A program made the position numbers and the translations under genes. Of a stretch of DNA of 64,000 nt, positions 2,299-63,537 are shown piece by piece. Within the stretch, counting starts at the first letter, position 1. Every line of letters starts with the position of its first letter. Origin of the DNA: Squalus acanthias (lineage: Eukaryota); NCBI GenBank assembly GCA_030390025.1, contig CM059432.1:22136001-22200000 (forward strand), written 5' to 3'. Under the pieces are notes generated by a model. That model was not told the DNA's origin. It was given only the letters and a program-made list of their open reading frames with translations, and ran no database searches.

Positions 2299-5166
2299 TC
2301 AGTATCCCGTCCCCGCCTTCTCTCCGTAACCCTTAACCCCTTTTGCCTGTAGAAATACATCTAATTCCCTCTTAAATATATTTAATGAGCTGGCGTACAC
2401 TGCCCTCTGTGGCAATGAGTTCCACAGGTTCACCACCCTCTGAGTGAAGAAATTCCACCTCATTTCTGTCCTAAATGGTTTAGCCCTTATCCTTAAATTA
2501 TGTCCTCTAGTTCTGTTCTCACCCGCCAAGGGAAACATTCCTTCTGCATCTAGTCTGTCTAGACCTGTCAGAATTTTATACACTTCTATGAGGTCCCCTC
2601 TCAATCTTCTAAACTCCAGTGTGTACATCCCTAAACTACATAGTCTCTCCTCATAGGTCAATCCCGCCATTCCTGGTATCAGCCTGGTGAATCGCCGCTG
2701 CACCCCCTCCATGGCAAGAACATCTTTCCTCAGATGAGGCGACCAAAACTGTACACAGTACTCGAGGTGTGGTCTCACCAGTGCCCTGTACAGCTGCAGC
2801 AAGGTATCCCTGTTCCTGTATTCCAACCCTTTTGCTATGAAGGCCAGCATACCGTTTGCCTTCTTGATCGCCTGTTGCACCTGCATGCTCGCCTTCAGTG
2901 ACTGGTGTACAAGAACACCCAGGTCTCTCTGTACTTCCCCCTCTCCCAATTTATTGCCATTTAAATAATAATTTGCCCTCCCGTTCCTGCACCCAAGGTG
3001 GATAACTTCGCACTTGTCCACATTATAGTGCATCTGCCATTTATCCGCCCAATCACCCAGTCTGTCCAAATCGCTCTGGAGCTTCCTGGTCTCCTCCTTT
3101 GAGCCCACCCCCCCTCCTAGTTTAGTGTCGTCTGCAAATTTGGAAATGCTGCATCCGACTCCCTGATCCAGGTCATTAATGTAAATTGTGAACAGCTGGG
3201 GACCCAGGACAGATCCCTGTGGTACCCCACTTGTTACTGCCTGCCATTCAGAAAATGAGCCGTTTATTCCAACTCTCTGTTTTCTATCTGACAGCCAGTT
3301 CTCTATCCACGTCAATACTTTCCCCTTTATCCCATGAGCTTCAATTTTCCCTGCTAATCTTTTATGTGGGACCTTATCGAAGGCCTTTTGGAAGTCCAGG
3401 TACACCACATCTACTGGCTCTCCCCCATCTATTTTACCAGTTACTCCCTCAAAAAATTCCAATAGATTAGTCAAGCACGATTTACCCTTTGTAAATCCAT
3501 GTTGACTCTGTCCTATCCTGTCCCCATTTGCTAAGTGCTCCGCTATTTCATCCTTAATGATGGACTCCAGCATTTTGCCCACAACTGATGTAAGGCTTAC
3601 AGGTCTGTAATTACCTGCTTTTTCCCTACCCCCCTTTTTGAATAGTGGGGTAACGTTAGCTACCCTCCAATCCATGGGCACTGTTCCCGAGTCTAATGAA
3701 TTCTGAAAAATCATACTTAGTGCATCCGCTATCTCTAGGGCCACCTCCTTCAGCACCCTAGGATGCATGTTATCAGGCCCTGGGGATTTGTCCGCCTTCA
3801 ATCCCTTTAGCTTCCTTAACACCATATCCTTAGAGATATTGACTTGCGTCAGTTCCTCCTTTGCAAATGTCCCTATTTTTCCCGATATCCCAGGGAGGTT
3901 TTTTGTGTCTTCCTTCGTAAAGACTGACCCAAAGTATGCATTTAGTTGGTCTGCCATTTCCTTATTTCCCGTTATATATTCCCCCGTATCTGACTGCAAT
4001 GGGCCAACTTTGGTTTTCACCAGTCTTTTCCTCTTGATATACTTATAAAAGCTTTTGGAGTTAGTTTTTATATTTTCCGCCAGCTTGCTTTCGTAAGCTA
4101 TTTTGCCCCTCTTGATTAAGCCCTTTGTCCTCCTTTGCTCTATCTTAAACTGTTCCCAATCTTCCGCTCTGGCGCTTTTTTTGGCTATTTTATACGCCCT
4201 ATCTTTGGATTTTATGCTGTCTCTAATTTCCCCTGTTATCCACGGTTGAGTCACCTTTTTAGATTTCCTTTTATGCCAGATTGGTATAAACAATTTTTGC
4301 AATTTTGTCATTCTATCTTTAAATGCTTGCCATTGTTTATCTACCTCCAGTCCTCCCAGGAACGTTGTCCAATCAGACCTACTCAGTTCCCGTCTAATGG
4401 CATCATAATTCCCCTTGTTTAAATTCAGGACCTTAGTATCTGAGTCAATTTCTTCGCTCTCCATTTCGAGTGAGAAATCGATCATGTTATGATCGCTCTG
4501 ACCCAAGGGTCCCCGTACAACAAGATTACTAATTAGTCCCTTCTCATTGCACAGTACCCAGTCCAATATAGCCTGTTCCCGAGTTGGTTCCTCGACATAT
4601 TGATCCAGATAACCATCCCTTAAACACTCAAGGAATTCCTCCTCCTCATTATTTTTACTGATTAGGCTATTCCAATCTATATGTAAGTTAAAGTCACCTA
4701 TGATGACAGCTGTGCTCTTATTGCACGCTTCTCTAATTTCCCTCGTGATGCCCTCCCCAACCTCTATTTTACTATTTGGAGGCCTATATACCACTCCTAT
4801 TAATGTTTTTCGCCCCTCGCTATTTCTTAGCTCCACCCATATAGATTCTGTATTAACTGAGTTAATATCCTTCCTTTCAATTGCATTTATCCCTTCTTTT
4901 ACCAGCAATGCTACCCCTCCTCCCTTTCTTTTTTGTCGATCCTTCCTAAATACTGAATACCCCTGTATGTTAAGCTCCCAGCCCTGCTCACCCTGCAACC
5001 ATGTTTCCGTAATCCCAATTAGATCATAATTATTAACCTCTATTTCCACAGCTAATTCATCTACCTTGTTCCTGATGCTTCTCGCATTAAGGTATAAAAC
5101 CCTCAGGCTTTTTTTATGCTCACATTTTTTATGAATTAGTTTGGCCCTTTGTTTTTTGTTCCTCAC
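2299..5166 (-). CDS. CR1 ORF2: APE endonuclease plus reverse transcriptase (frame open upstream to 5265; the track start is GTG)
   Basis: Endonuclease motifs LNARSI, GITETW, GDFN and SDH. RT motifs [21 protein letters not shown] and FADD. 955 aa without a stop. Confidence 0.95.
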   Translation of the reverse strand: MRNKKQRAKLIHKKCEHKKSLRVLYLNARSIRNKVDELAVEIEVNNYDLIGITETWLQGEQGWELNIQGYSVFRKDRQKRKGGGVALLVKEGINAIERKDINSVNTESIWVELRNSEGRKTLIGVVYRPPNSKIEVGEGITREIREACNKSTAVIIGDFNLHIDWNSLISKNNEEEEFLECLRDGYLDQYVEEPTREQAILDWVLCNEKGLISNLVVRGPLGQSDHNMIDFSLEMESEEIDSDTKVLNLNKGNYDAIRRELSRSDWTTFLGGLEVDKQWQAFKDRMTKLQKLFIPIWHKRKSKKVTQPWITGEIRDSIKSKDRAYKIAKKSARAEDWEQFKIEQRRTKGLIKRGKIAYESKLAENIKTNSKSFYKYIKRKRLVKTKVGPLQSDTGEYITGNKEMADQLNAYFGSVFTKEDTKNLPGISGKIGTFAKEELTQVNISKDMVLRKLKGLKADKSPGPDNMHPRVLKEVALEIADALSMIFQNSLDSGTVPMDWRVANVTPLFKKGGREKAGNYRPVSLTSVVGKMLESIIKDEIAEHLANGDRIGQSQHGFTKGKSCLTNLLEFFEGVTGKIDGGEPVDVVYLDFQKAFDKVPHKRLAGKIEAHGIKGKVLTWIENWLSDRKQRVGINGSFSEWQAVTSGVPQGSVLGPQLFTIYINDLDQGVGCSISKFADDTKLGGGVGSKEETRKLQSDLDRLGDWADKWQMHYNVDKCEVIHLGCRNGRANYYLNGNKLGEGEVQRDLGVLVHQSLKASMQVQQAIKKANGMLAFIAKGLEYRNRDTLLQLYRALVRPHLEYCVQFWSPHLRKDVLAMEGVQRRFTRLIPGMAGLTYEERLCSLGMYTLEFRRLRGDLIEVYKILTGLDRLDAEGMFPLAGENRTRGHNLRIRAKPFRTEMRWNFFTQRVVNLWNSLPQRAVYASSLNIFKRELDVFLQAKGVKGYGEKAGTGY

Positions 5167-5240
5167 CCTTTTACCATTTATTTCTGTCTGCCTTTCACTT
5201 TCCTCTATTTCACTACATAGGTTTCTAGCCCCCTGCCATA

Positions 5241-6188
5241 CTAGTTTAAATGCTCCCGAACTGCTTTATCAAAAATTACCCCGAGAACATCAGTTCCATC
5301 TTTGCACAGGTGTAGACCGTCCCTTTTGTATAGGTCACACCTACCACAAAACTGGTTCCAATGACTCAAAAATTTAAAACCCTCCCTCTTACACCACTGC
5401 TCAAGCCACGTATTTAGCCTAACTATCCTGTTCTCTGTACTCTTACTAGCACGTGGCACTGGTAGTAATCCAGAGATTACTACCTTCGAGGTCCTACTTT
5501 TTAGCTTGGCTCCTAACTCCCTAAATTCTACTTGTAGGACCTCTTCCCTTTTTTTAGCTACGTCGTTGGTACCAACATGTATCACGACAACTGGCTGTTC
5601 CCCCTCCCCCTCCAGAATGTTCTGCACCCGCGCCGAGACATCCTTGACCCTTGCACCAGGGAGGCAACATACCATCCTGGAGTCTCGGTCGCGACCACAG
5701 AAACCCCTATCTATTCCCCTTACAATCGAATCCCCTATTACTATAGCCCTGCCACTCTTTTTCCCTCCCTTCTTTGCAACAGAGCCAGTCATGGTGCCAT
5801 GAGCCTGGCTGCTGGTGCCTTCCCCCGATGAGTCATCCCCCCCGACAACAGCACCTAAGGCGGTGAACCTGTTGCTAAGGGAGACAACCCCAGGGGATTT
5901 CTGCACTACCTTCCTGCCCTTGCTCTGCCTTTTGGTCACCCATGTACTATCTACGCTGGCCTTAACCTGCGGTGTGACCAACTCACTAAATGTGTTATCC
6001 ACAACCCTCTCAGAATCGTGGATGCTCCAAAGTGAGTCCATCCGCAGCTCAAGGGCCGTCATGCGGTCCCACATGAGCTGCAGCTGGACACACTTCCCGC
6101 ACACATGGTTGTCAGGGACACAGGAAGCGTCCCTGATTTCCCACATGTTACAGGAGGAGCATGACACAGGTCCGAGCTCTACTGCCAT
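5241..6188 (-). CDS. CR1 ORF1: CxxC..CxxC zinc finger/leucine zipper plus SGNH/GDSL esterase
   Basis: CSSC and CGKC, then SGNH blocks IGDSIVR, HVGTND and DGLHL. 315 aa with ATG start. Confidence 0.93.
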   Translation of the reverse strand: MAVELGPVSCSSCNMWEIRDASCVPDNHVCGKCVQLQLMWDRMTALELRMDSLWSIHDSERVVDNTFSELVTPQVKASVDSTWVTKRQSKGRKVVQKSPGVVSLSNRFTALGAVVGGDDSSGEGTSSQAHGTMTGSVAKKGGKKSGRAIVIGDSIVRGIDRGFCGRDRDSRMVCCLPGARVKDVSARVQNILEGEGEQPVVVIHVGTNDVAKKREEVLQVEFRELGAKLKSRTSKVVISGLLPVPRASKSTENRIVRLNTWLEQWCKREGFKFLSHWNQFCGRCDLYKRDGLHLCKDGTDVLGVIFDKAVREHLN

Positions 6189-6646
6189 GACTTAACCCTT
6201 ATATTACTTTTTAATTTTCTAGTTTTAGTTTATTTATTGACTTTTGTTTTCCCGAAGCTTACTTAGACCAATGTAGACTGTACTCCTCTTATTCCTTTTT
6301 AAACTAACCAAATCCCACTAGTTTTAGTTTTACTTTCTAGGAAGGTTTGAGGAAAGTACTTACCAGTTAGTCTTACCTCCCTGGTCTTTCGCTGACTTCC
6401 CGGTCTTGTGTCCCCTTGGTCCTACGCCGACTTCCCGCTCCTCCCGGTTCCTGCCCTGCTGAAAAGAAACTGAGACCAAAAAATTTGTGACCTCTGTTTT
6501 TAGACTGCTAAAAGACTAGTAGGTTAGAGGAGGAGGGCGGGTGGGGGTTCCTACTCTGTAGGAACTCGGGTTTAAGCCACCACCCTCCTTAAATGCTGTT
6601 CACCTGGGTGCTTCCCACCTGGTCCGCTTCCGGTCTCGTCTCTCCG

Positions 6647-7109
6647 GACACTGGCCTCTGCAAAAAAAAAAGCCCGCGAAAGTGAGTTTAACTACTCACT
6701 GTGCTGCTGCTCTCTCCGCTCCCGACACTGGCCTCTGCAAAAAAAGCCCGCGAAAGTGAGTTTAAATACTCACTGTGCTGCTGCTCTCTCCGCTCCCGAC
6801 ACTGGCCTCTGCAAAAAAAGCCCGCGAAAGTGAGTTTAAATACTCACTGTGCTGCTGCTCTCTCCGCTCCCGACACTGGCCTCTGCAAAAAAAGCCCGCG
6901 AAAGTGAGTTTAAATACTCACTGTGCTGCTGCTCTCTCCGCTCCCGACACTGGCCTCTGCAAAAAAAAGCCCGCGAAAGTGAGTTTAAATACTCACTGTG
7001 CTGCTGCTCTCTCCGCTCCCGACACTGGCCTCTGCAAAAAAAAGCCCGCGAAAGTGAGTTTAACTACTCACTGTGCTGCTGCTCTCTCCGCTCCCGACAC
7101 TGGCCTCTC
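6647..7109 (-). repeat. Tandem 74-77 bp monomers (6 full plus 14 bp) forming the CR1 5' end
   Basis: Units start at 6647, 6724, 6798, 6872, 6946, 7021 and 7096. They differ only in A-run length and one base, and lie inside the TAT TSD. Confidence 0.95.
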
Positions 7110-7822
7110 TATGTGATGGAACCAACCAGGAAACAGGTTATTTTAGATCTTGTATTGTGTAATGAGACAGGGTTAATTAGCAATCTCATAGTAAAGGATC
7201 CTCTGGGGCAGAGTGATCATAATATGATAGAATTTCACATTAATTTTGAGAGTGACTTGCCTAAGTCCGAAACTAGAGTCTTAAACATAAATAAAGCCAA
7301 TTGCAGAGGTATGAGGGGTGAGTTGGCTAAGGTAGATTGGAAAAAATGATTAAAAAGTATGGCGTTAGATAAGCAGTGATTAGCATTTAAAGAAATATTT
7401 CTCAACAAAAATACATTCCATTGAGAAACAGAAACTCCACAGGAAAAGTGATCCAACCATAGCTAACTAAAGAAGTTCAGGATAGTATTAGATTGAAAGA
7501 AGAAGCTTATAATGTTGCGAAGAATAGTAGTAAGCTTGAGGATTTGGAGAGTTTCAGAAACCAGCAAAGGATGACCAAAAAATTGATAAAAAGGGAAAAA
7601 ATAGAATATGAGAGAAACCGAGCAAGAAATATAAAAGCAGATTATAAGAGCTTCTACAAATATGTAAAAAGGAAGAGAGTAGCAAAAGTAAATGTTGGTC
7701 CCTCAGAGGCTGAGACAGAAGAAACTATTATGGGGAATAAGGAATTGGCAGAAACGTTAAACAAATATTTTGTATCTGTCTTTGTAAAAGAAAACAAAAA
7801 GCATACCAAAAAGGGGAACCAA

Positions 7823-8715: not shown

Positions 8716-11171
8716 CAAGGATCTAATGAGGGTAAGGAACTTAACGTAATTAATATAAGTAGAGAAAAACTACGAGAGAAACTAATGGGACTAAAAGTCG
8801 ACAAATCCCCTGGACCTGACAGCCTACATCCTAGGATTCTAAAAGAGGTGGCTGAAGAGATAGTGGATGCATTGGTTTTGATCTTCCAAAATTCCCTAGA
8901 TTCTAGAACGGTCCCAGCGGATTGGAAGGTCGCAAATGTAACACTGCTATTCAAGAAAGGAGGGAGAGAGAAAACAGGGAACTACAGGTCAGTTAGCCTG
9001 ACATCAGTCGTCGGGAAAATGCTGGAATCCATTGTTAAGGAAATGGTATCAGGGCACTTAGAAAATCATAACATGATTAGGTAGAGTCAACATGGTTTTA
9101 TGAAAGGGAAATCGTGTTTGACAAATTTATTAGAGTTTTTTGAGGATGTAACTAGCATGGTAGATAAAGGGGAACCAGTGGATGTAGTATATTTGGATTT
9201 CCAAAAGGCATTCGATAAGGTGCCACATAAAAGGTTATTACACAAGATTAGGGCTCATGGGGTTGGGGTAATATAGTAGCATGGATAGAGGATTGGTTAA
9301 CGGACAGAAAACAGAGAGTCGGGATAAACGGATCTTTTTCAGGTTGGCAGGCTGTAACTAGTGGGGTGCCTGCAAGGATCAGTGTTGGGGCCTCAGCTAT
9401 TTACAATCTATATTAATGACCTAGATGAAGGGACCAAGTGTAATGTATCCAAGTTTGCTGATGATACAAAGCTAAGTGGGACAGTAAGCTGTGAGGAGAA
9501 CACAAAGGGGTAGAAATTAGGTCACGCCCCATTTGGGGCGCAAATATCGTCTGGACGCAAATATTAGCGCCTGGCGCTAATTATCGGCACTGACTGGAAA
9601 CTTCACTTTTACCGCCCCGGGAGGTGAGTGGAGCGCTAAAGCAGGCGCTGCACACCTGTCTTAAGGCGCAAAGGCCAAGGAGTGAGGCGCTAACTCAGCG
9701 CGCGAGCGCAGCGCAGCTGCTGCCAGTTAGCGAGGGAACACAGACACACTGGCGCCGGCCACTTCTTAAAGCGGGGGGGGCCAACTTGCTCCCCAGCCAC
9801 ACCCTGCTCATTGCAGCCTTGAATCTCGGCCTGGAGAGACCTGTGAATCCATTTTGCTGCCAAGCATGGAGAGGGTGAGAGAACGCACTCATCGCTTCAC
9901 CGAGCGGGCCTTGGATGCTCTGGTTGGCGCGGTGGAGTGCAGACGATGTATGCTCTTCCCTGAGAGTGGCAGGAGGCCTTTGCCACGCGAGTTCAGAAGA
10001 GTGTGGAGGGAGGTGGCTCAGAGCGTCTCCTCCAGGAGCATGGTGCCCAGGACCCATACTCAATGCCGCAAAAAGTTCAACGACCTCACTCGGGTCGTCA
10101 GGGTGAGTGGCTTTTTCTCAATACCTCTCCATCCCTCCATCTCAACCTCACTCTATGGCCAGAGGGTCTTAAAACCCCAATGCACAACACTCATCCAACA
10201 CCTATGGCCCTTTCATCAAACACACACACACATTCCACACTTTGCATACAGTAAGGGCTATTCACCTATGGGAGGCACATCAGGCAAGACCATGGCTGTA
10301 TATTTACTCAGATGCTGTCCTTTTTCTTACAGGCCAAGCTGGTGCATAATCGGAGACAGCAGCAACGGACAGGTGGAGGGCGGCCTCAGCTGCAACCCCT
10401 CAGCGATCTGGAGGAGTGCATCCACAGGATTGTGGCAAGCCGGGTGATCGGTCCCGTCGCCACTGGAGACGCCGACCCCGTTCTGGACAGCAATGGTAAG
10501 GTCATCACCTTTTTGTCCTCTGTCCTTCCACTTGTCCCTCACAACACCAGCCTTTGACACTTTCAATCCAACTTGCTAACTCGCTGCACTTATTCCTCCC
10601 TTACTGCCACCCTGTCCTCACGCTAAAGCCACTCTTGTACCTCCCTGCTTTCAGATGGTGATTCACCAGCTGAGGAGATGGTCCCTGAAGCTGCCACTGG
10701 GAGTGATGCTGCAGCTGAGGAGGAAGAGGAAGCCGGAGCATCAGTGCCACCCTCTCCCGAGGAAGCCCATGCCCACACTGGGAACACGCCTTCCCTGGAG
10801 GGGAGCAGGGGGGAAGGGTCTGATGAGGGTGAAGATCCAGGACCCAGCGGGCTGCAGCAACGCCATGGGGGGGGTAGGGAAGAACGGGGGCCTTCTCCCC
10901 AGAGGGAGAGTATGCCAGACACTCCTACTGCAATGGACGCAGAGGAGGAGTGGCTGATTGCAGAAATGAACAGCCAGGCGGTGGGCATGCACACTGAGCT
11001 CATGGGTGCAGTGGGAAGGGTGCCCGAATGCATTGAGTCACTGGCAAGGAGTGTGGAGCACTTCGCTGTAGCACAGGCGGATGCCACACTAACGCTTAGT
11101 GCTGCAATTCAGTCACTGGCTGCCGTGATCCCATCTCTGACTGCTCTCACCCCCAATATGCCAACATCTTC

Positions 11172-14617: not shown

Positions 14618-16429
14618 ATTCTCTTTGCAAGCAAAGTAATGAAGGACAGCAACTAAAGTAGCAGCAAAGTTAGGATCAATAGGCAAAACTACCTCACAAA
14701 GCGTTGAGTCAGTGTAGAAGTCTCTCTTTCTCTCTCTCCGAATCTCTCTCTCTCTCTCAGAACGAGTGGTGCAAAAATGTCGACCACAGAAAAAGACAGG
14801 AAGAGGCCCCCTTTAAATAGCGGCCCCCCCCAGCCCCACAGCGATTGATAGCGTTCCAGTCTTCCGGTCGTTGGAAGCGCCAGGCGGTAAGGCAGGGGGC
14901 GCCACTCAATTTCCGCTCCGGGGCACCACAAGGGCGTTGCACCATGGAATGACGTCACAATCTGCGCGCGCAGGTGGTCGCAGCGGTAAGTTTTAGCGCC
15001 GCCGCACAATGTCAAGTTAAGTTCCCGAGCGGCGCAAACATCGCTGCGCCCAGGCGTTAGCGGCTTTGCGACTCATTAGCGCCCTCTTAAGGCGCTAACG
15101 GGAGGCGCAACCAACTGAATTTTTACCCCAAAGAGTCTGCAAAGGGATATAGATAGACTAAGTGAGTGGGCAGTAAGGTGACAGATGGAGTATAATGTAG
15201 GGAAATGTGAGGTTATTCACTTTGGTAGGAAGAATAGAAAAACAGAATATTCTGTAAATGGTGAGAAACTTTCAAATGTTGGTGTTCAGAGAGATTTGGG
15301 TGTCCTTGTGCAAGAAACACAGAAAGCTAGCATGCAGGTACAGCAAGCAATAAGGAAGGCAAATAGCATGTTGGCCTTTATTGCAAGGGGGTTGTAGTAT
15401 AAGAGTAAGGAAGTCTTGCTACAATTATACAGGGCCTTGGTGAGACCACACCTGGAGTACTGTGCATAGTTTTGGTCTCCTTATCTAAGGAAGGATATAC
15501 TTGCCTTGGAGGCAGTGCAACAAAGGTTCACTAGATTGATTCCTGGGATGAGAGGGCTGTCCTATGATGAAAGATTGTGTAGATTGGACCTATACTCTCT
15601 GGAGTTTAGAAGAATGAGAGGTGATCTCATTGAAACATATAAGATTCTGAAGGGGATTGACAGGGTAGATGCTGAGAGGTTGTTTCCCCAGGCTGGAGTG
15701 TCTAGAACTAGGGGGCATAGTCTCAGGATAAGGGGTAGGCCATTTAAGACCGAGATGAGGAGGAATTTCTTCACTCAGAGGGTTGTGAATCTTTGGAATT
15801 CTCTGCCCCAGACGGTTGTGGATGCTGAGTCTTTGAGTATATGCAAGGCTGAGATAGATAGATTTTTGGACTCTAGGGGAATCAAGGGTTATGGAGATCA
15901 GGCGGAGAAAGTGGAGTTGAGGTCAATAATCAGCCATGATCTTATTGAATGGAGGAGCAGGCTCGAGGGGACGTATGGCCTACTCCTGCTCTTATTTCTT
16001 ATGTTCTTATATTCTTAATCTTGACAGATCAGTGCCCTTATAGGAAATGGTAAACTCCAGGCTTCAGTACAACAAACTGAATATGGATTCTGAAGTCTGG
16101 CTCCAAATAGTAATTCATTTTATTGCTTCATCTTCAAAGACAAGCTTCCAAGTAGATGCGTTTCAGTTACCCGAGGACTGTTGTTAGCTGCTTTGAGGAG
16201 ATCATTAATATTGTGTTATCCTTAGATGATTGCAGGAGGTTAACTACTATTGGCTCACATAAAGGGAAACTTTTTTTTTGATTCTGGGTTGCTGTGAGAG
16301 TGGAGCGCAACTGGGGACACACAACCTCCTAATGTCCCTCTCCGCTTTTTAATTTCCTCGTGACTGTGGGCCAGTGGGAAAGAGGCGCGAGTTTACTAGT
16401 GCCACAGATGGTCAATTTCGGGATGCAGG

Positions 16430-21078: not shown

Positions 21079-21795
21079 GACCTTGGAGTGCATGTCCACA
21101 GATCCCTGAAGGTAGCAGGCCAAGTAGATAAGGTGGTTAAGAAGGCATACGGAATGCTTGCCTTTATTAGCCGTGGCATAGAATACAAGAGCAGGGGGGT
21201 TATGCTTCAACTGTATAAAACACTAGTTAGGCCTCAGCTAGAGTACTGCGTGCAGTTCTGGTCACCACATTACAGGAAAGATGTGATTGCACTTGAGAGG
21301 GTACAGAGGAGATTTACAAGGATGTTGCTGGGAGTAGAGAATCTTAGCTATGAGGAAAGACTGATAGGCTGGGTCTGTTTTCCTTGGAACAGAGGAGGCT
21401 GAGGGGAGACTTTATTGAGGTGTATAAAATTATGAGGGGCATAGATAAAGTGGATAGAAAGGACCTATTTCCCTTAGCAGAGGGGTCAAAAACCAGGGGG
21501 CACAGATTTAAAGTAATTGGGGGAAGGTTTAGAGGGAATTTGAGGGGAAATTTCTTCACCCAGAGGATTGTGGGGGTCTGGAACTCACTGCCTGAAAGGG
21601 TGGTAGAGGAAGGAACCCTAACCACATTTAAAAAGTACTTGGATGTGCACTTGGGATGCTGTAACCTGCAGGGCTACGGACCAAGAGCTGGGAAGTGGGA
21701 TTAGGCTGGATAGCTCTTTGTTGGCCGGCGCGGACACGATGGGCCGAAATGGCCTCCTTCCGTGCTGTAACTTTCTATGATTCTATGATTCTATG
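21079..21795 (+). mobile_element. CR1 3' fragment inserted into a reversed CR1 tail (about 21016-22020)
   Basis: LVRPQLEYCVQFWSP peptide, (TTCTATGA)n tail and ATGG duplicated at the junctions. Confidence 0.85.
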
Positions 21796-41124: not shown

Positions 41125-42715
41125 ATAAGAACATAAGAATTAGGAGCAGGAGTAGGCCATATGGCCCCTCGAGCCTGCTCCGCCATTCAATAAGATCATG
41201 GCTGATCTTCGACCTCAACTCCACTTTCCTGCCTTATCCCCATATCCCTTAATTCCTCTGAAGTCCAAAAATCTATCTATCTCAGCCTTGAATATAATGC
41301 GATTGAGCATCCACAGCACTTTGGGGCAGATAATTCCAAAGAGTCACAACCCTCTGAATGAAGAAATTTCTCCTCATCTCAGTCTTAAAAGGCCGTCCCC
41401 TATCCTGAGATTATGCCCCCTAGTTCTAGACTCTCCAGCCAGGGGAAACAATCTCTCAGCATCCCCCTCAGAATCCTATAGGTTTCAATGAGATAACCTC
41501 TCATTCTTCTAAACTCCAGAGAGTATCTACTCAATCTATCCTCAGAGGCTAACCTGACATGAATCTTGTCATTCATGTGGAAATTACTTATGAAATAATA
41601 CTGGGTGGCCTGCTGGTGGCGCTGTCCAGGGAGAGTATAAATACTCGGGCATGGGCCCAGCTTGCTCAGGACATTCTTTAACAGGAACTAGTGAAGGACA
41701 CAACCAGACCTCCATGTTGAAAAACAGTTGATTAAAGCTTTGTTTAATGCTTAGACCAAGTGCCTAGTAGTTTTCTTACGTCACAACCCTCTCATCCCAG
41801 GGAATAATCTAGTGAACCTTCATTGCACCACCTCTAAGGCAAGTATGTCCTTCCTTAAATAAGGAGACCTGGGGAGGCGATTGGAGGCCTCATAGGAGTG
41901 TCTCCAATCAGGGGAGGGTGGGTATGGTAGGGACCCTGGATCCAGCAGGTCGGTATAAAGCCACTTACCTCCTGGATGCAGCTGTCCTCGCCTCTGTTTA
42001 ACTGCCGGGTTTCACGAATTGTGTGAAACCCGTCCACAGGCAGTTAAAAACAAAATGGAGGGGAAAATAGAGGCTTCCAGCCTCATTACAATATTTAAAT
42101 TGAGGTAGCGCCCCTGGGAGCGGGTTGGCTGCCCGCCCCCATCCCGCCTCCAGGAAAACCGGAAGTGGGCGGGTTGGAGGCATTATCAAGTCGGGATTCA
42201 CATTTTTAACAATTTAACTGCCCCCACACCCCAAACCCACCCATTTTTTGATGGGAAAATTCTGACCTCTGTGTTTCCTGTATGAGGACACCCAGATCTC
42301 TCTGAACACCAACATTTAATAGTTTTTCAGCATTTAAAAAATATTCTGTTTTTCTATTCTACCTACCAAAGTGAATAACCTCACATTTCTCCACATTATA
42401 CTCCATCTGCTACCTTATCGCCCACTCACTTTATATCCCTTTGCAGGCTCTTTGTGTCCTCATATCTTACTTTTCTACATAGCTTTGTATTGTCAGCAAA
42501 CTTGGGTACATTGCACTCGGTCCCTTCATCTAAGTCATTAATATAGATTGTGAATAGCTGAGGCCCAAGCACTGATCCTTGCGGCACCCCACAATTTACA
42601 GCCTGCCAACCGGAAAATGACCCATTTATCCCTACTCTCCGTTTTCTGTCTGTTAACCAATCCTCTATCCGTACTAATACCTTACCCCCAACCCCATGTG
42701 CCCTTATCTTGCCCA
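41125..42715 (-). mobile_element. Fragmented CR1 3' part interrupted by a MITE
   Basis: [10 protein letters not shown] and FADN peptide at 42426-42715, and a reversed CR1 tail at 41125. Confidence 0.8.
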
Positions 42716-43049
42716 TCATTAGAAATGACAAGTTTTCCACTCCCTCCCCCCTCCCCCCCACGCAGTACTCACTAATCTCTATAAATATCGGAAAGCATAA
42801 GGAGACCACAATGTTTAAGTCTCCAAGTGACTAGCTGAATCAGATATCACCATATAAGGATGAAAAAGACTGAAGGGCTAATGGGTTTGGTGGCTAGATT
42901 TTTGGATACTAAGGGAATCAAGGGACATGGAGATCGGGCAGGAAAGTGGAGTTGAGGTCGAAGATCAGCCATGATCTTATTGAATGGTGGAGCAGGCTCG
43001 AGGGGGCCATATGGCCTACTCCAGCTCCTAACTCTTATATTCTTATGTT

Positions 43050-47143: not shown

Positions 47144-48094
47144 ATGGCAGGAGAGCTCCACCCTGTGATATGCTCCTCCTGCTATATGTGGGAAATCAGG
47201 GATGCTTCCTGTGTCCCTGACGACCATGTGTGTGGGAAGTGTATCCAGCTGCAGCTACTGATGGACCGCATTGCGGCGCTGGAGCTGCGGATGGATGCCT
47301 ATTGGAGCATTCGCGATGCTGAGGACGTCGTGGATAGCACATTTAGAGAGTTGGTCACACCGCAGGTAAAGGGTGTACAGGCAGGAAGTGAATGGGTGAC
47401 CACCAGGCAGAGTAAGAGGTGCAGGCAGGTAGTGCAGGGGTCCCCTGTTGCCATCCCCCTCTCAAACAGATATACCACTTTGGATGCTGTTGGGGGGGAT
47501 GACTTATCAGGGGAAGGCAGCAGCAGCCAACTTCCTGGCACCATGGGTGGCTCTGCTGTACAGGCAGGGAGGAAAAAGTGTGGAAGAGCTATAGTGATAG
47601 GGGATTCAATTGTAAGGGGAATAGATAGGTGTTTCTGCGGCCACCAACGAGACTCCAGGATGGTGTGTTGCCTCCCTGGTGCAAGGGTCAAGGACGTCTC
47701 AGAGCGGCTACAGAACATTCTGGAGGGGGAGGGCAAACAGCCAGTTGTCGTGGTGCACATAGGCATCAACGATATAGGTAAAAAATGGGATGAGGTCCTA
47801 AAAGCAGAATATAGGGAGTTAGGAGGTAAATGAAAAAATAGGACCTCAAAGGTAGTAATCTCAGGATTGCTACCAGTGCCACGTGCTAGTCAGAGTAGAA
47901 ATAGAAGGATATTTCAAATGAATAGGTTGCTAGAGGAATGGTGCAAGGGGGAGGGATTCAAATTCCTTGGACATTGGAACCGGTTCTGGGGGAGGTGGGA
48001 CCAGTACAAACGGGACGGTCTGCACCTGGGCAGGGCCGGGACCGATGTCCTAGGGGGAGTGTTTGCTAGTGCTGTTGGGGAGGGTTTAAACTAA
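47144..48094 (+). pseudogene. CR1 ORF1 (zinc finger plus esterase) with a premature TGA at 47831
   Basis: Colinear with 5241-6188; IGDSIVR and DGLHL motifs. Confidence 0.9.
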
Positions 48095-51075
48095 AGTGGC
48101 AGGGGTTTGGGAACCTGAGCAGGGAGACAGAGGAAAGGGAAACAAGGATAAAAGCAAAAGACAGGAAGGAGAAAAACAAAAGTAGAAGGCAAAGAACTCA
48201 ACGGTTTAAATCAAACATGGTCACAGTAAATAATAATTCATATAGCTCTGAGAGCGTTAAAAAAACAAGCCTGAAGGCTTTGTGTCTTAATGCAAGGAGC
48301 ATTCGGAACAAGGTGGATGAATTAGCTGCGCAAATAGAGGTAAATGAATGCGATTTGATTGGGATTACAGAAACATGGCTCCAGGGTGGCCAAGGCTGGG
48401 AACTCAACATCCAGGGGTATTCAATATTTAGGAAAGATAGGCAAAAAAGAAAGGGAGGTTGGGTAGCATTGCTGGTTAAAGAGGGGATTAACACAATTGA
48501 AAGGAAGGATATTAGCTCTGATGATGCGGAATCTGTATGGGTTAACTGAGAAATAACAAGGGGCAGAAAACATTAGTGGGAGTGGTATATAGACCTCCAA
48601 ACAGTAATATGGAGGTTGGGGATGGCATTAAAAGGGAAATTAGAGAAGCATGCAGTAAGGCCACAGTAGTCATCATGGGTGACTTTAATTTACATATAAA
48701 TTGGGCTAACCAAATTAGTAAAAATATTGTGGAGGAGGAATTCCTAGAATGTTTACGGGATGGTTTTCTGGAACAATATGTCGAGGAACCAACCAGAGAT
48801 CAGGCCATCTTAGACTGGGTATTATGTAACGAGAAAGGATTAATTAGCAATCTTGTTGTACGAGGCCCCTTGGGTCAGAGTGACCATAATATGATAGAAT
48901 TCTTCATTAGGATGGAGAGTGAAGTAGTTGAATCAGAGACTAGGGTCCTGAATTTAAATAAAGGAAACTACGATGGTATGAGGCGCGAATTGGGTAGGAT
49001 TGATTGGGGAATGTCACTCGAAGGGTTGACGATGGATAGGCAATGGCAAACATTCAAAGACTGCATGGATGAACTACAGAATTTGTTCATCCCAGTGTGG
49101 CATAAGAATAAAACAAAAAGGGTGACTCAACCGTGGCTAACAAGGGAAATTAGGGATAGCATAAGATCCAAGGAGAGGGCATATAAATTGGCCAGAAAAA
49201 GCGGTAACCCTGAGGATTGGGAGCAGTTTAGGATTCAACAAAGGAGGACAAAGGGATTAATTAAGAAGGGGAAAATAGAATATGAAAGTAAGCTTGCTGG
49301 GAACATAAAAACTGACTGTAAGAGTTTTTATAGATATGTGAAGAGAAAAAGATTAGTGAAATCAAGTGTAAGTCCCTTGCAGTCAGAAGCGGGGGAAGTT
49401 ATAATGGGGAACAAAGAAATGGCAGACCAATTAAATGCATATTTTGGTTCTGTCTTCACAAAGGAGGACACAAATAACCTCCCAGAGATGTTGGAGAACA
49501 TACGGTCTGATGAAAGGGAGGAACTGAAAGAAATCAGTATTTGCAGGGAAATGGTGTTAGGGAAATTGACGGGATTGAAGGCCGATAAATCCCCAGGGCC
49601 TGATAATCTACATCCTAGGGTACTTAAGGAAGTGGCCGTAGAAATAGTAGATGCATTGCTGATCATCTTCCAACATTCGATGGAATCTGGAACTGTACCC
49701 ATGGATTGGACGGTAGGTAATGTTACACTACTATTCAAAAAGGGTGGTAGAGAGAAAGCGGGAAATTACAGACCGGTAAGCCTGACATCGGTAGTGGGGA
49801 AAATGCTAGAGTCCATTATAAAGGATGTAATAGCTGAGCACTTGAAAAACAGTGACAGGACCGGACAAAGTCAACATGGATTTACAAAAGGTAAATCGTG
49901 CTTGACTAATCTACTGGAATTTTTTGAGGATGTAACTGGTAAAATAGATAAGGGAGAACCAGTGGATGTGGTGTATTTGGACTTTCAAAAGGCTTTCGAT
50001 AAGGTCCCGCATAAGAGATTAGCGTGTAAAGTTAAGGCACATGGGATTGGGGGCAAGGTATTGACTTGGATAGAGAACTGGTTGGCGGACAGAAAGCAAA
50101 GAGTAGGAATTAATGGGTCTTTTTCCGAGTGGCAAGCAGTGACTAGTGGGGTACCGCAGGGATCGGTCCTTGGACCCCAGCTATTCACAATATACATTAA
50201 TGATCTAGATAAGGGAACTAAATGTAATATCTCCAAGTTTGCAGATGACACAAAGCTGGGTGGGAGTGTGTGCTGCGAGGAGGATACCGAGAAACTCCAG
50301 GATGATTGGACAGGTTGGGTGAGTGGGCAGAAGCATGGCAGATGCAATATAACGTGAATAAATGCGAAGTTATCCACTTTGCTGTCAAAAACAGAAAGGC
50401 AGACTATTATCTGAATGGCAATAGATTGGGAGAAGAGGAAGTGCAACGAGACCTGGGTGTCCTTGTGCACCAGTCGCTGAAGGTAAGCATGCAGGTGCAG
50501 CAGGCGGTGAAGAAGGCAAATGGTATGTTGGCCTTCATAGCAAAAGGGTTTGAGTATAGGAACAGGGATGTCCTGCTGCAGTTGTACAGGGCCTTGGTGA
50601 GACCACACCTTGAGTATTGTGTGCAGTTTTGGTCGCCTTATCTGAGGAAGTATCTTCTTGCCATGGAGGGAGTTCAGCGAAGATTCACAAGGCTGATACC
50701 TGGAATGGCAGGAATGACATATGAGGAGAGATTGGGTCGATTGGGCTTATACTCGCTGGAGTATAGAAGAATGAGAGGGGATCTCATCAAAACATATAAA
50801 ATTCTGACAGGTCTGGACAAACTAGATGCAGGAAGAATGTTCCCGATGGTCGGAGAGTCCAGAACCAGGGGTCATAATCTAACGATAGGGGTAAGCCATT
50901 TAGGACCGAAATGAGGAGGAATTTCTTCACCCAGAGAGTGGTGAACCTGTGGCATTCTCTACTACAGAATGTAGTTGAGGCCAAGTCATTAAATATATTC
51001 AAGAATGAGTTAGATATATTTCTTAAAGCTAAAGGTATCAAGGGATATGGGGAGAAGGCAGGTACAGGGTACTGA
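48085..51075 (+). pseudogene. CR1 ORF2 (endonuclease-RT) with a stop at 48547 and frameshifts near 50305 and 50885
   Basis: ORF pieces at 48217, 48576 and 50306 are colinear with the intact ORF2. Confidence 0.92.
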
Positions 51076-51177
51076 GTTTGGATGATCAGCCATGATCTCA
51101 TCGAATGGCGGAGCAGGCTCGAGGGGCCGAATGGCCTACTCCTGCTCCTATGTTCTATATTTCTATGTTTCTATATA

Positions 51178-51520
51178 TCCATTCCATTGTTGCATTTCAG
51201 ATATTGTCTAACATTTATGATATTGTACCTGGAGCATTGCCAATCAATTGTGTTGTTGCATATTTAGTATTGTCCATCTATTGTTATATTTTAGCTCTAA
51301 TATTTCCCATCAATTGTAATATTGAACCTCGTGTATGGTTCACCCATTGTAATGTACTTCAGGTATTGTCCAACCATTGTGATGTTGTACCTCAGATATT
51401 ATGCATCCATTGTGATGTTTTACTGTCTGATATTGTCCATCCATTGTGATGTTGTACCTCAGATATTTCCCATTCTTGTAACATTGAGACATCCATCCAT
51501 TGGAATTTTTACTGATGATA
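51178..51520. repeat. Degenerate minisatellite of about 33 bp, roughly 10 copies
   Basis: Consensus CCATTGTGATGTTGTACCTCAGATATTGTCCAT. Confidence 0.7.
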
Positions 51521-51527
51521 TTGTCTC

Positions 51528-52305
51528 TTACATAGGATTACATCGGATATATGGCACAGAAACAGGCCATTCGGCCCAACCAGTCCATGCCGTCATTTAT
51601 GCTCCACACGAGTCTCCTCCCGTCTTTCCTCATCTAACTCTATCAGTATAACCCTCTATTCCCTTTTCCCTCATATGCTTATCTAGCCTCCCCTTAAATG
51701 CATCTATACTATTCGCTTCAACCACTCCCTGTGGTAGCGACTTCCACATTCTCTCCACTCTTTGGGTAAAGAAGTTTCTTCTGAATTCCCTATTGGCTTT
51801 CTTGGTGACTATCTTAAATTGATGGCCTCTAATTATGCTCTTCCCCACAAGTGGAATCCACTCTATCAAAATTTTTCATAATTTAAAGACGCCTATTAGG
51901 TCACCCCTCAGCCTTCTTTTTTCAAGAGAAAAGAGACCCAGCCTGTTCATCCTTTCCTGATATGTATACCCTCGCATTTCTGGTAGCATCCTTGTAAATC
52001 TTCACTGCACCCTCTCCAGTACCTCTATATCCTTTTTATAATATGGCAACCAGAACTGTATGCAGTACTCTAAGTGTGGTCTAACCAAGGTTCGATACAG
52101 GTTTAGCATAACTTCCCTACTTTTCAATTTTATCCCTCTAGAAATAAACCCTAGTGCTTGGTTTGCTTTTTTTAATGGCCTTGCTAACCTGTGCCGCAAC
52201 TTTTAGTGATTTGTGTATTTGTACTCCGAGATCCCTTTTTTCCTCTACCCCACCTAGACTCGCACCCTCCAAGTGATTAGTGACCTCCCTATTCTTCCTA
52301 CCTAA
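51528..52305 (-). mobile_element. CR1 3' fragment of another subfamily
   Basis: LVRPHLEYCIQFW and NFFTQRV peptides, with a reversed tail at 51528. Confidence 0.85.
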
Positions 52306-53769
52306 ATAAGCTTCCATCCCAGTCAGAGGAAATGGGTAAGATTAATGACAAATACACACGCCAATGGCAAAATTCAAATATATAACTTTCAAAAGTACAC
52401 TGAACTCAATATCCACCCCCTCCGCCACCGGCCCACAGTGGTTGCAAGTATGCACTGCCTACAAGGTGCACTGCAGCAACTCATCAAGCTTACTTTGACA
52501 GCACCTCCCAGCCCCATGGCCTCTACCACCGAGAAGAACAAGAGCAGTAAGATCATGCAAACATCATCACCTCCTAGTTCCCCTGCAAGTTATATATCAT
52601 CCTGAGTTGGACAGATACTGCTGTTCTTTCATCATTGCTGAGTGAAAATCCTGGAATTTGTTACTCATCATTGCGGGAATACCATCAGCATAAGTTCAAG
52701 GAGAAGGCCCACCACCACCTTCTCTGGCAGCTAGGGATGGACAATAAATGTGGCACCACTAATATTGCCCACATCCCAAGAACAAACATAAAAATTTGAT
52801 GAAGTATATATATATATGTAAAAATTGAAAATTCCGATGTCTTTGTGCTATGGACCAGTTCCCAGCCGACAGTATTGGTAAGCGACATATTATCTGGACT
52901 CTGCCAACATCACTCTATTTCCATCAAACAGGATATGTGAAAGGGTAATGGGATCAGTCAACCTTTGATTCATCCCTCTATTCTTCTCTTCTCATCAAGA
53001 AACAACCGGTCATCACTTAGCAACTCCTATTGACGGTACAGATCAGGTTGAAAGTACTATTTATTTTTAATATATTTGTGGGAGTGTATTCATAAGTGTA
53101 GCACACCTTTGATGTTCATGTGCTATTATATTCACTGGCATGTATTCTTCATACATAAATGGTTTCTACATTAAATTGAAAGATATGTTTGGGTGTGCTC
53201 CTCTTGAATAGATTGCTACTTTTACTTAGTTCTAATTATTATTATTTTCCTCGTATTGTTTGCTTTTAAAATTAACTAAGATTGGCACATCAAATCCAGC
53301 AATGTTGGGTGCTTATGATAATTTTGCAGCATCGAGAGAATAGCATAATATTTCCATAACTATTTTTATCATCATGTATTTTACATAAGTGCCACACACA
53401 TTTAAAGATTTGGTCATTAAGGATAAGTCAGTTGTCTGCTTCCAACAAAATTTCAGACAGACTGTTAATCATTTTTATAGCAGCAATAAACCAGTAATAC
53501 TTGCCTAAAACTAGAATCTTGTATTTACTAACAGATGGTGATTAATCCTCCATGTTCAATTACTGTAGTTCATTTAAAATGAAAAATTGCTTTTGACTAA
53601 ATAAAATTATTAGCATAATGTTATCTGGATTCAGAAATTCATTCCATTTATATTTTGTGCAAGATGGCCACTGAAATTGTAAATGCCAAGCAAACATTCT
53701 TACTTTCAAGCATTGTGCATATAAATGGTAACTGCCACTGGAAGCCTATATATAAAGTTTAAACACAAA

Positions 53770-61564: not shown

Positions 61565-63537
61565 CATTCAAGGCCACCTACAGACCAAGCACCCAAGGTC
61601 CTACCCCACTGCGGGCCAAGAACAGAGAGGTACTCATCAAGGACAGGGAGGCAGTCAGTGCCCGCTGGAAGGAGCACTTCGAGGATCTCCTTAACTGAGA
61701 ATCTGTCTTCGATGTGAGTGTCTTCAACTCCATCCCGCAGCATGCTACCCGCCACCACCTCAGCACAACCCCAGCCCAGCATGAGGTTGAAAAGGCCATC
61801 TGACAACTGAAGAACAACAAGGCCTCAGGAGCAGATGGAATCCCTGCCGAGGCACTAAAGCATGGCAGAGAAGCACTACTGGCGCAAATTCATGAACTCA
61901 TTTCTCTTATCTGGAAGGAGGAGAGCATGCCAGGGGATCTCAGAGACGCCGTAATTGTGACCATCTTCAAGAAAGGTGACAAGTCCGATTGCGGTAATTA
62001 CAGAGGAGTTTCCCTGCTGTCTGCCGCAGGGAAATTCATCGCAAGAATCCTCCTCAATCGCCTTCTCCCAGTGGCTGAAGAGTTCCTCCAAGAGTTGCAA
62101 CGCGGATTCCGCCCACTAAGGGGCACAATGGAAAAGATCTTCACCGCACGTCAATTAAAAGAGAAATGCAGGGAACAGCACCAACCACTGTACATGGCCT
62201 TCTTTGACCTCACAAAGGCCTTCAACACTGTCAACCGTGAGGGATTATGGAGTGTCCTCCTCAAATTCGGCTGCCCTCAAAAGTTTGTCACCATCCTTCG
62301 CCTGCTTCACGAAAACATGCAAGCCGTGATCCTGACCAACAGTTCCACCACAGACCCAATTCACGTACGGACCGGGGTCAAGCAAGGCTGTGTCATCGCA
62401 CCAACGCTCTTCTCGATCTTCCTTGCTGCAATGCTCCATCTCACCCTCAGTAAGCTCCCCGCTGGAGTGGAGCTAATTCACAGAACAAACGGGAAACTTT
62501 TCAACCTCTGTCGCCTCCAGTCCAGATCCAAGGTCGTCCCTTCCTCTATCATTGAATTACAGTATGCAGACAACGCTTGCATCTGCGCACACTCGGAGGT
62601 TGAACTCCAAACCATCGTCAACACCTTCACCGGGCCTTACACTAAACATCCGTAAGACAAAGGTTTTCTACCATCCTGCCCCCGCCACACAGTACTGCTC
62701 CCTGATTATCAAAATCCACGACAAGGCCTTGGACAACGTGGACCACTTTCCATACCTCGGGAGCCTACTGTCAACAAGGGCAGACGTCGACGACGAAGTC
62801 CAACACCGCCTTCAGTGTGCCAGTGCAGCCTTCAGTCACCTGAGGAAGAGAGAGTTTGAAGACCAGGACCTCAAACCTTGCACCAAGCTCATGGTCTACA
62901 GAGCAGTAGTGATAACCGCCCTCCTGTATGCCTCAGAGATATGGGCCATGTACAGCAGGCACCTCAAAGCACTGGAGAGGTACCACCAACACTGCCTCCG
63001 CAAGATCCTGCAGATCCATTGGCAGGATAGGCGCACCAACGTCAGTGTTCTCGCTCAGGCCAACATCCCCAGCATCGAAGCTTTGACCACGCTCGATCAG
63101 CTCCGATGGACGGGTCACATCGTCCGCATGCCCGATACGAGACTCCCAAAACAAGCGCTCTACTCAGAGCCCCGACACGGCAAGTGAGCCCCAGGTGGGC
63201 AGAGGAAATGCTTCAAGGACACCCTCAAAGCCTCCTTGAAAAAGTGCAACATCCCCACTGACACCTGCGAATCCCTGGCTAAAGACCGCGCAAAGTGGAG
63301 GAGAAGCATCCGGGAAGGCGCCGAACACCTTGAGTCTCTTCGCTGGGACCAAGTGAAAGCCAAGCGCAAGGAGCGCACGTCAACCCAAGCACCCCACCCA
63401 CTCACCCCTTCAACCACCGTCTGCCCTACCTGTGACAGAGACTGTAGGTCCCGCATTGGACTCATCAGTCACCTGAGAACTCATTTTTAATGTGGAAGCA
63501 AGTCATCCTCGGTTCCGAGGGACTGCCTAAGAAGAAA
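61565..63537 (+). mobile_element. 5'-truncated RTE-clade LINE with decayed RT and a C-terminal C2H2 finger
   Basis: NYRGVSLL, FDLTKAF, GVKQGC, QYADN, FPYLGS and CPTC..HLRTH, followed by an (AAG)n tail. Contains stops and a frameshift. Confidence 0.92.

Follow-up and report, generated by a model that had tools for sequence, protein, structure and literature searches.

A candidate −1 frameshift signal at the ORF1–ORF2 junction of CR1 retrotransposons

Two CR1 elements in the window

The 64,000-nucleotide stretch of Squalus acanthias DNA analysed here (contig CM059432.1, positions 22,136,001 to 22,200,000; the window) contains two long interspersed nuclear elements (LINEs) of the CR1 type, which are 79% identical to each other over 4065 nt (blastn). 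One copy, on the plus strand at about 46.8–51.2 kb, is decayed: its first open reading frame (ORF1) has a premature stop at 47831–47833, and the frame of ORF2 is broken near 48546–48570, 50306 and 50887. The other, on the minus strand at 2.2–7.1 kb, keeps both ORF1 and the ORF2 frame unbroken and is called the intact copy. Identity between the copies is 71% in ORF1 and 59–81% in ORF2, compared in four pieces. In both, ORF1 ends at a slippery heptamer and ORF2 lies in the −1 frame. The sequence comparisons below suggest that CR1 LINEs with an esterase ORF1 very probably express ORF2 by programmed −1 frameshifting, yielding an ORF1–ORF2 fusion.

The canonical esterase-ORF1 CR1 LINEs of vertebrates include shark HER1. 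In the intact copy, Pfam assigned ORF1 to Lipase_GDSL_2 (SGNH esterase) and ORF2 to Exo_endo_phos (APE endonuclease) and RVT_1 (reverse transcriptase). The closest solved structure to ORF1 was 4C1B, a LINE ORF1-encoded protein (E 6.6e-45). The intact copy ends in an octamer tail without poly(A) (8-bp unit, 3.1 copies, 2197–2221); imperfect octamer repeats, read by eye, lie near 51150–51178 at the 3′ end of the decayed copy. An SGNH esterase ORF1, an ORF2 with APE endonuclease and reverse transcriptase, and an octamer tail are likewise features of the canonical elements (PMC13343379, PMC4316615). Placement in CR1 rather than L2 is indirect: chondrichthyan L2 elements have no ORF1 (PMC13343379), and turtles and lizards have homologues of this ORF1.

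The original prediction, made for the decayed copy, was accurate in its anatomy. A heptamer T_TTA_AAC is followed directly by the ORF1 stop; the −1 frame is closed by a TAG five codons upstream of the heptamer and is then free of stops for 44 codons, up to an ATG at codon 45. We found that this frame in fact stays open to codon 154, inside the endonuclease. Since the TAG at 48067–48069 closes the −1 frame, any shift is confined to the 22 nt before the ORF1 stop. The two copies have the same heptamer and the same phase, and the predicted transframe peptides, FKLKWQGFGNLSRETEE in the decayed copy and FKLVWQGARNLCSEIEE in the minus-strand intact copy, were recovered. The copies differ, also as predicted, in their ORF1 stop codons (TAA in the decayed copy, TAG in the intact one), in the linker, which is 14 codons (42 nt) shorter in the intact copy (N of NARS at codon 55 vs 69), and in their 5′ untranslated regions (UTRs), the blastn match between the copies starting only about 20 nt before the ORF1 ATG. 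TTTAAACTA occurs three times in the window, counting both strands, and two of these occurrences are the two junctions.

Table 1. Coordinates of the features of the two CR1 copies (positions in the window)
Feature	Position	Strand	Remark
ORF1, decayed copy: Cys-rich N-terminus and SGNH esterase, ending in GLN and stop	47144..48094	+	71% identity to intact-copy ORF1
TAG shutting the −1 frame, five codons before the heptamer	48067..48069	+	frame reading
Slippery heptamer T_TTA_AAC (TTTAAAC), candidate −1 shift site, decayed copy	48085..48091	+	
ORF1 stop TAA, directly 3′ of the heptamer, decayed copy	48092..48094	+	
Linker, open in the −1 frame, basic, low complexity, loosely constrained	48095..48270	+	
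G-run, starting 11 nt past the heptamer, candidate stimulator	48102..48105	+	48106 mostly G in related copies
In-frame ATG (−1 frame, codon 45), 24 codons ahead of N of NARS	48217..48219	+	missing from intact copy
ORF2 body (APE endonuclease and reverse transcriptase), three frame breaks	48271..51075	+	
3′ UTR with imperfect octamer repeats	51076..51178	+	match to intact copy stops at 51178
ORF1, intact copy, 316-codon frame, ending in HLN and stop	5241..6188	-	
Heptamer T_TTA_AAC of the intact copy, then TAG (5243-5241) and five-G run (5233-5229)	5244..5250	-	
ORF2 frame of the intact copy, unbroken 983 codons from the heptamer	2299..5250	-	first endonuclease motifs and the stretch before them lack Met

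Junction codons and reading frame in related elements

A protein search with ORF1 gave 270 homologues, 120 of which were listed. Among the listed matches, 108 reach the C-terminal region, and 93 of these, 28–71% identical to the query, end in LN and a stop. Named LN-ending proteins came from sharks, rays, coelacanth, bony fish, Xenopus, turtles and lizards, and the best named relatives were those of sharks and rays. Two LN-ending proteins of CR1 type, P0010 and P0088, are filed under Pseudomonas aeruginosa and the flatworm Protopolystoma xenopodis and probably reflect host contamination.

To obtain junctions at the DNA level, we used a metagenome scan by ORF1 protein similarity, in which the motif played no part. 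It gave 36 loci, of which 19 stop short of the junction and one (L037) is a non-LINE SGNH protein without ORF2; the remaining 16 and the two window copies make up a set of 18 junctions. Three scans of viral contigs gave one truncated locus, and a scan of bacterial genomes gave none. The junctions fall into about six lineages with 15–45% mutual identity in the ORF1 C-terminus (frameshifted L004 left out), and 10 of the 18 form a group of near relatives, termed bird-like because they resemble a crane protein where the endonuclease begins. The crane proteins P0131 and P0136, named mitochondrial enolase superfamily member 1, have endonuclease and reverse transcriptase domains and look like CR1 ORF2.

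All 18 junctions carry a heptamer of the slippery type: T_TTA_AAC in 15, G_TTA_AAC in two and T_TTT_TTA in one. The Leu codon is TTA in 18 of 18, as the original prediction would have it; the T expected in front of it is found in the T_TTA_AAC and T_TTT_TTA junctions, the other two having G. The Asn codon is AAC in 17 of 17. Background and linker counts were made on 15 junctions (L010, L028 and L036 left out). In the ORF1 bodies of these elements TTA makes up 30 of 202 Leu codons and AAC 36 of 71 Asn codons, and none of nine internal LN pairs reads T_TTA_AAC.

These codon data bear on the view that LN is needed by the protein at the C-terminus of the esterase, the match in DNA being simply inherited. 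L315 and N316 are indeed invariant in an alignment of 48 sequences (chosen from the LN-ending matches), and the window copies are 79% identical. Moreover, the residue before LN is one of E, Q, K, M or W, which have no T-ending codon, in only 3 of 93 proteins (the next two columns: 41/93 and 42/93), a depletion equalled in two nearby hydrophobic columns (3/93 and 4/93). However, synonymous positions are fixed across lineages that are 15–45% identical in ORF1, N is replaced freely when F precedes L (see below), and the crystallised chain of the fish LINE esterase 4C1B stops two profile positions before the LN columns. Shared ancestry or the C-terminal LN, which the original prediction had allowed for, is largely refuted by the codon data and is a very improbable explanation.

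At least as improbable is a junction in which polymerase slippage or splicing joins ORF1 and ORF2 in the RNA. CTAG, similar to a splice acceptor, is present in most junctions; however, the decayed copy, L021 and L024 have TAA and L032 has no stop there, the sequence upstream is purine-rich rather than a pyrimidine tract, and the runs of T and A are only three long in most junctions.

The endonuclease was in the −1 frame at all 13 junctions that reach it (of the first 15), beginning at codon 36 to 96, and the linkers accordingly range from 36 to 96 codons. The 15 junctions have 527 codons in the −1 frame between the heptamer and whichever of a Met, the endonuclease or the end of the contig comes first, none of them a stop; the other two frames had 52 and 107 stops over the 12 linkers counted. 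In 13 of 15 junctions the −1 frame is shut 1–14 codons upstream of the heptamer, which limits the possible shift positions. The first Met stands at codon 5, 23, 26, 29, 45 or 90, or is absent before the endonuclease; the intact window copy, L002, L021 and L024 have no Met ahead of the endonuclease. Among 33 long ORF2 homologues, whose starts were chosen by gene callers, no common start position was found.

The scatter of Met positions is one of several points against a second way of reaching ORF2, namely termination at the ORF1 stop and reinitiation in the −1 frame at a nearby ATG or non-AUG codon, the conserved sequence then being a termination/reinitiation context. Five bird-like loci have an ATG 2 nt past the stop, the ATG of the decayed copy (A at −3, G at +4) is probably frequent in its subfamily, and other LINEs offer precedents: L1 tolerates loss of the ORF2 AUG (PMC1965478) and SART1 uses an overlapping stop-start (PMC3894237). 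Yet the heptamer is retained where the stop is displaced by 1, 2 or 10 codons (L021, L032 and L008, respectively), the alternative junction sequences are again slippery heptamers, and the codon fixation upstream of the stop is left unexplained. We consider reinitiation in place of frameshifting unlikely; where an ATG is present, it may operate alongside frameshifting.

Variation at the window junction was assessed by aligning contigs of three runs to 47860–48400. Among the 40 variant rows listed, of 124, none affected ATG 48217, though several near-fixed differences from the family majority appear there; most of the subfamily probably has this ATG, which could provide a second start for these elements. 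The original prediction had counted family-wide conservation of this ATG against itself. The ATG is probably kept at the subfamily level, and across lineages the position of the Met is not shared. ATG 48217 cannot account for the open frame ahead of it or for lineages that have no ATG. The same rows contained no variant in the heptamer, which is uninformative, as about half of all 9-nt stretches are expected to have no row. There were no indels at a frequency of at least 4% in 47860–48400, a weak, contig-based result.

The linker itself is under little constraint. Twenty of the listed rows fall in it, and of these 16 are non-synonymous and four synonymous in the −1 frame, with no stops. Between the window copies the ratio of non-synonymous to synonymous differences (pN/pS), calculated from few changes, was 0.39 for linker codons 4–17 and 0.56 for codons 4–35 (32 codons), compared with 0.40 at the ORF1 end and 0.15 in the endonuclease. 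The ratio in the +1 frame was also low (0.30 for codons 4–35), and the statistic alone therefore cannot identify the frame. A search with the linker peptide gave no matches among three candidates. The WQG..NL..E.EE motif of the original prediction is present in both copies; the FKL of the transframe peptide and the Gly at codon 7 are imposed by the heptamer and the G-run, and the rest is loose. By these comparisons the transframe linker is coding yet loosely constrained, and WQG mainly mirrors the G-run. The inference that the spacer is coding, read in the −1 frame after entry at a conserved slippery heptamer, has good support in far more than the two copies; that of a conserved transframe motif has less.

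Heptamer exchange and the downstream element

A more distant group was addressed with a profile built from five distant ORF1s, and the best 150 matches were listed. Among these, 73 keep the L column and have a stop within four residues. N follows L in 38 of the 73; another residue follows in 35, of which 34 show F ahead of L. None of the 34 residues preceding FL lacked a T-ending codon, whereas K or Q occupied that column in 15 of 38 of the LN group. Fisher tests on the two groups ignore kinship and overstate the evidence. The DNA of L021 reads T_TTT_TTA followed by ATT TAA. The FL pattern is as would be expected if the site had moved one codon upstream to U_UUU_UUA, which is the heptamer of human immunodeficiency virus type 1 (HIV-1; PMC4373837). 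A quick tree of 67 of these 73 proteins, built with the last residues left out, required three changes between xLN and FLx, at least two of them forced by strongly supported branches.

Ten distant ORF1s have KN or GN near the C-terminus (P0250, P0266, P0267, P0269, P0272, P0277, P0282, P0284, P0285 and P0291), which at the protein level is compatible with A_AAA_AAC or G_GGA_AAC heptamers. In another, P0300, the frame runs on into an endonuclease motif right after RTKK, where relatives have RTKN and a stop soon after; from the protein we infer a fit to ORF2 in the −1 frame behind an A-rich shift site.

Downstream of the heptamer, a run of at least four G begins at +10 or +11 in 10 of 10 shark, L002 and bird-like junctions examined; it starts at +8 in L003, +11 in L028 and +12 in L036. 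The background rate at which such runs start in these elements is 0.001–0.011 per nt. In the same 10 junctions GGG occupies codon 7 and G is the last base of codon 6; GGG accounts for about 30–40% of Gly codons in four ORF2s. This points to the G-run as an RNA-level element in three lineages.

In the distant clade hairpins were predicted instead. The hairpin of L024 starts at +11 (z −2.6) and that of L021 at +11 from the shifted heptamer (z −4.0). As both lie 11 nt past the heptamer, hairpin and heptamer have shifted by 3 nt as a unit with respect to the stop. A weaker hairpin was predicted in L032 (z −1.4), and L008 has no stable stem. G-quadruplex patterns were inconsistent, a three-tier pattern occurring in 1 of 15 junctions, and the best long-range partners of the G-run, for which there was no control, were not the same in shark as in bird-like loci. 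A possible short stem, its arms different but complementary, was seen by eye about 28–52 nt past the heptamer in L006, L013, L014 and L017; it was predicted in L006 and L017 only, no better than in shuffles.

Frameshifting as the likely mode of ORF2 expression

Anatomy, codon fixation, phase, the open frame and heptamer switching were all computed directly from sequence, and they argue for −1 frameshifting in CR1; from them we infer that ribosomes slip, that a fusion protein is made and that the G-run plays a part. In the proposed mechanism the stop adjoining U_UUA_AAC would end ORF1 for most ribosomes. A minority would slip one base back by tandem slippage of the Leu and Asn tRNAs on the heptamer, in competition with termination at the adjacent stop, and would continue through the flexible linker into the endonuclease and reverse transcriptase, giving an ORF1–ORF2 fusion at a low ratio (cf. 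retroviral Gag-Pol). The pause would probably come from the adjacent stop and from an element beginning at about +11, namely a G-run in vertebrate-type elements or a hairpin in one distant clade. U_UUA_AAC is among the most shift-prone heptamers for mammalian ribosomes, and in pea enation mosaic virus a stop near the shift site matters (PMC5009743).

Several observations weigh against this interpretation. Folds past the heptamer were not significantly better than shuffles in either window copy (z −1.5 to +0.7), nor were downstream folds in four bird-like loci, and neither a shared G-quadruplex pattern nor a long-range partner of the G-run was found among the 15 junctions. The test on the residue before LN is weak alone, given the two equally depleted columns. 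Of 122 anchored distant ORF1s, 31 have no slippery-compatible pair in the last five residues (several of these misfits have KN or LN further from a displaced stop). The 18 junctions represent only about six lineages, with 10 of them bird-like relatives. Codon 92 of L005, where the endonuclease begins, is a stop, and the decayed locus L028 has lost the ORF1 stop and is broken in frame within the linker. Some lineages offer AUG starts (an ATG at codon 5 in L004, L006, L007, L014 and L036), and most of the subfamily of the decayed copy probably has ATG 48217. Finally, the transframe peptide is loosely constrained, and one raw RNA run had no reads over the junction region.

Viral −1 sites are among the closest parallels. 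The coronavirus infectious bronchitis virus (IBV; U_UUA_AAC) and HIV-1 (U_UUU_UUA) have heptamers identical to those of CR1 and a polymerase made as a rare fusion beside a plentiful first protein; a 3′ hairpin is shared by the distant CR1-type clade. Equine arteritis virus uses G_UUA_AAC. The site of that virus is given as G_UU(A) in a frameshifting review. CR1 differs from the viral sites in the stop directly after the heptamer and, in vertebrate-type elements, in showing a G-run instead of a stable stem or pseudoknot. In this respect the nsp2 site of PRRSV (the virus behind porcine reproductive and respiratory syndrome) is similar, with no obvious structure and a short homopolymer-rich motif 11 nt downstream (10-nt spacer); in PRRSV, however, the motif is C-rich and is bound by PCBP and nsp1beta, whereas that of CR1 is a G-run (PMC4937337). 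We regard the PRRSV parallel as a lead only. By analogy, one might speculate that an ancient −1 frameshift, giving a Gag-Pol-like fusion in jawed vertebrates and in more distant hosts, has repeatedly exchanged heptamers of viral type and that in vertebrates the hairpin gave way to a protein-bound G-run at the same distance, a scenario we put forward tentatively and think doubtful.

Among retrotransposons, the APE-type non-LTR (long terminal repeat) elements TRE5-A and TRE3-A of Dictyostelium are both stated in a review to need a −1 frameshift for ORF2 (PMC5911963). They belong to another lineage and host; in CR1 one heptamer is retained across vertebrates and distant hosts. Human L1, SART1 and ZfL2-1 likewise have a bicistronic LINE RNA with ORF2 down-regulated. 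ZfL2-1 makes ORF2 by stop read-through. L1 differs in using AUG-independent initiation (PMC1965478) and SART1 in UAAUG coupling (PMC3894237). Translation of ORF2 in two-ORF LINEs has been called an open question (PMC3894237).

We found no description of a CR1 frameshift in the literature covered, which extended neither to the chicken and turtle CR1 descriptions of 1997 nor to the esterase paper of 2003, where an overlap may be mentioned. The canonical CR1 descriptions, unlike the present account, give no mechanism for ORF2 translation (PMC13343379, PMC4316615), and the words overlap, start codon, translation and frameshift have no occurrence in the main text of PMC13343379, a 2026 survey of the CR1 group. 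By full-text count a 2016 review of frameshifting does not mention CR1, and the accessible part of a 2013 commentary lists initiation models, frameshifting not among them. New here are the range of lineages covered, the finding that the heptamer switched repeatedly, and the constant position of the +11 element; the recoding mechanism itself is familiar.

CR1-group elements are the dominant retrotransposons of most vertebrates (PMC13343379). If the frameshift is real, their ORF2 protein bears the ORF1 protein at its N-terminus, the ORF2 starts in annotations are incorrect and the spacer codes for protein; CR1 could then also be subject to the host factors that influence viral frameshifting. The signal is less than 30 nt long, which makes direct testing by a standard reporter possible.

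Target-site duplications were looked for in the window, and none was convincing. At its 5′ end (6642–7108, minus strand) the intact copy has a 74-bp unit repeated 6.2 times with 98% match, and four of the units contain TTTAAAC in a non-coding context. Six 5′-truncated CR1 fragments (7032–7804, 8719–9507, 15101–15904, 21079–21692, 41227–42719 and 51636–52308) are 45–75% identical in ORF2, and none of them includes the ORF1 junction. A decayed reverse transcriptase at 61804–63187 has only about 25% identity to CR1 ORF2 and belongs to a different LINE clade.

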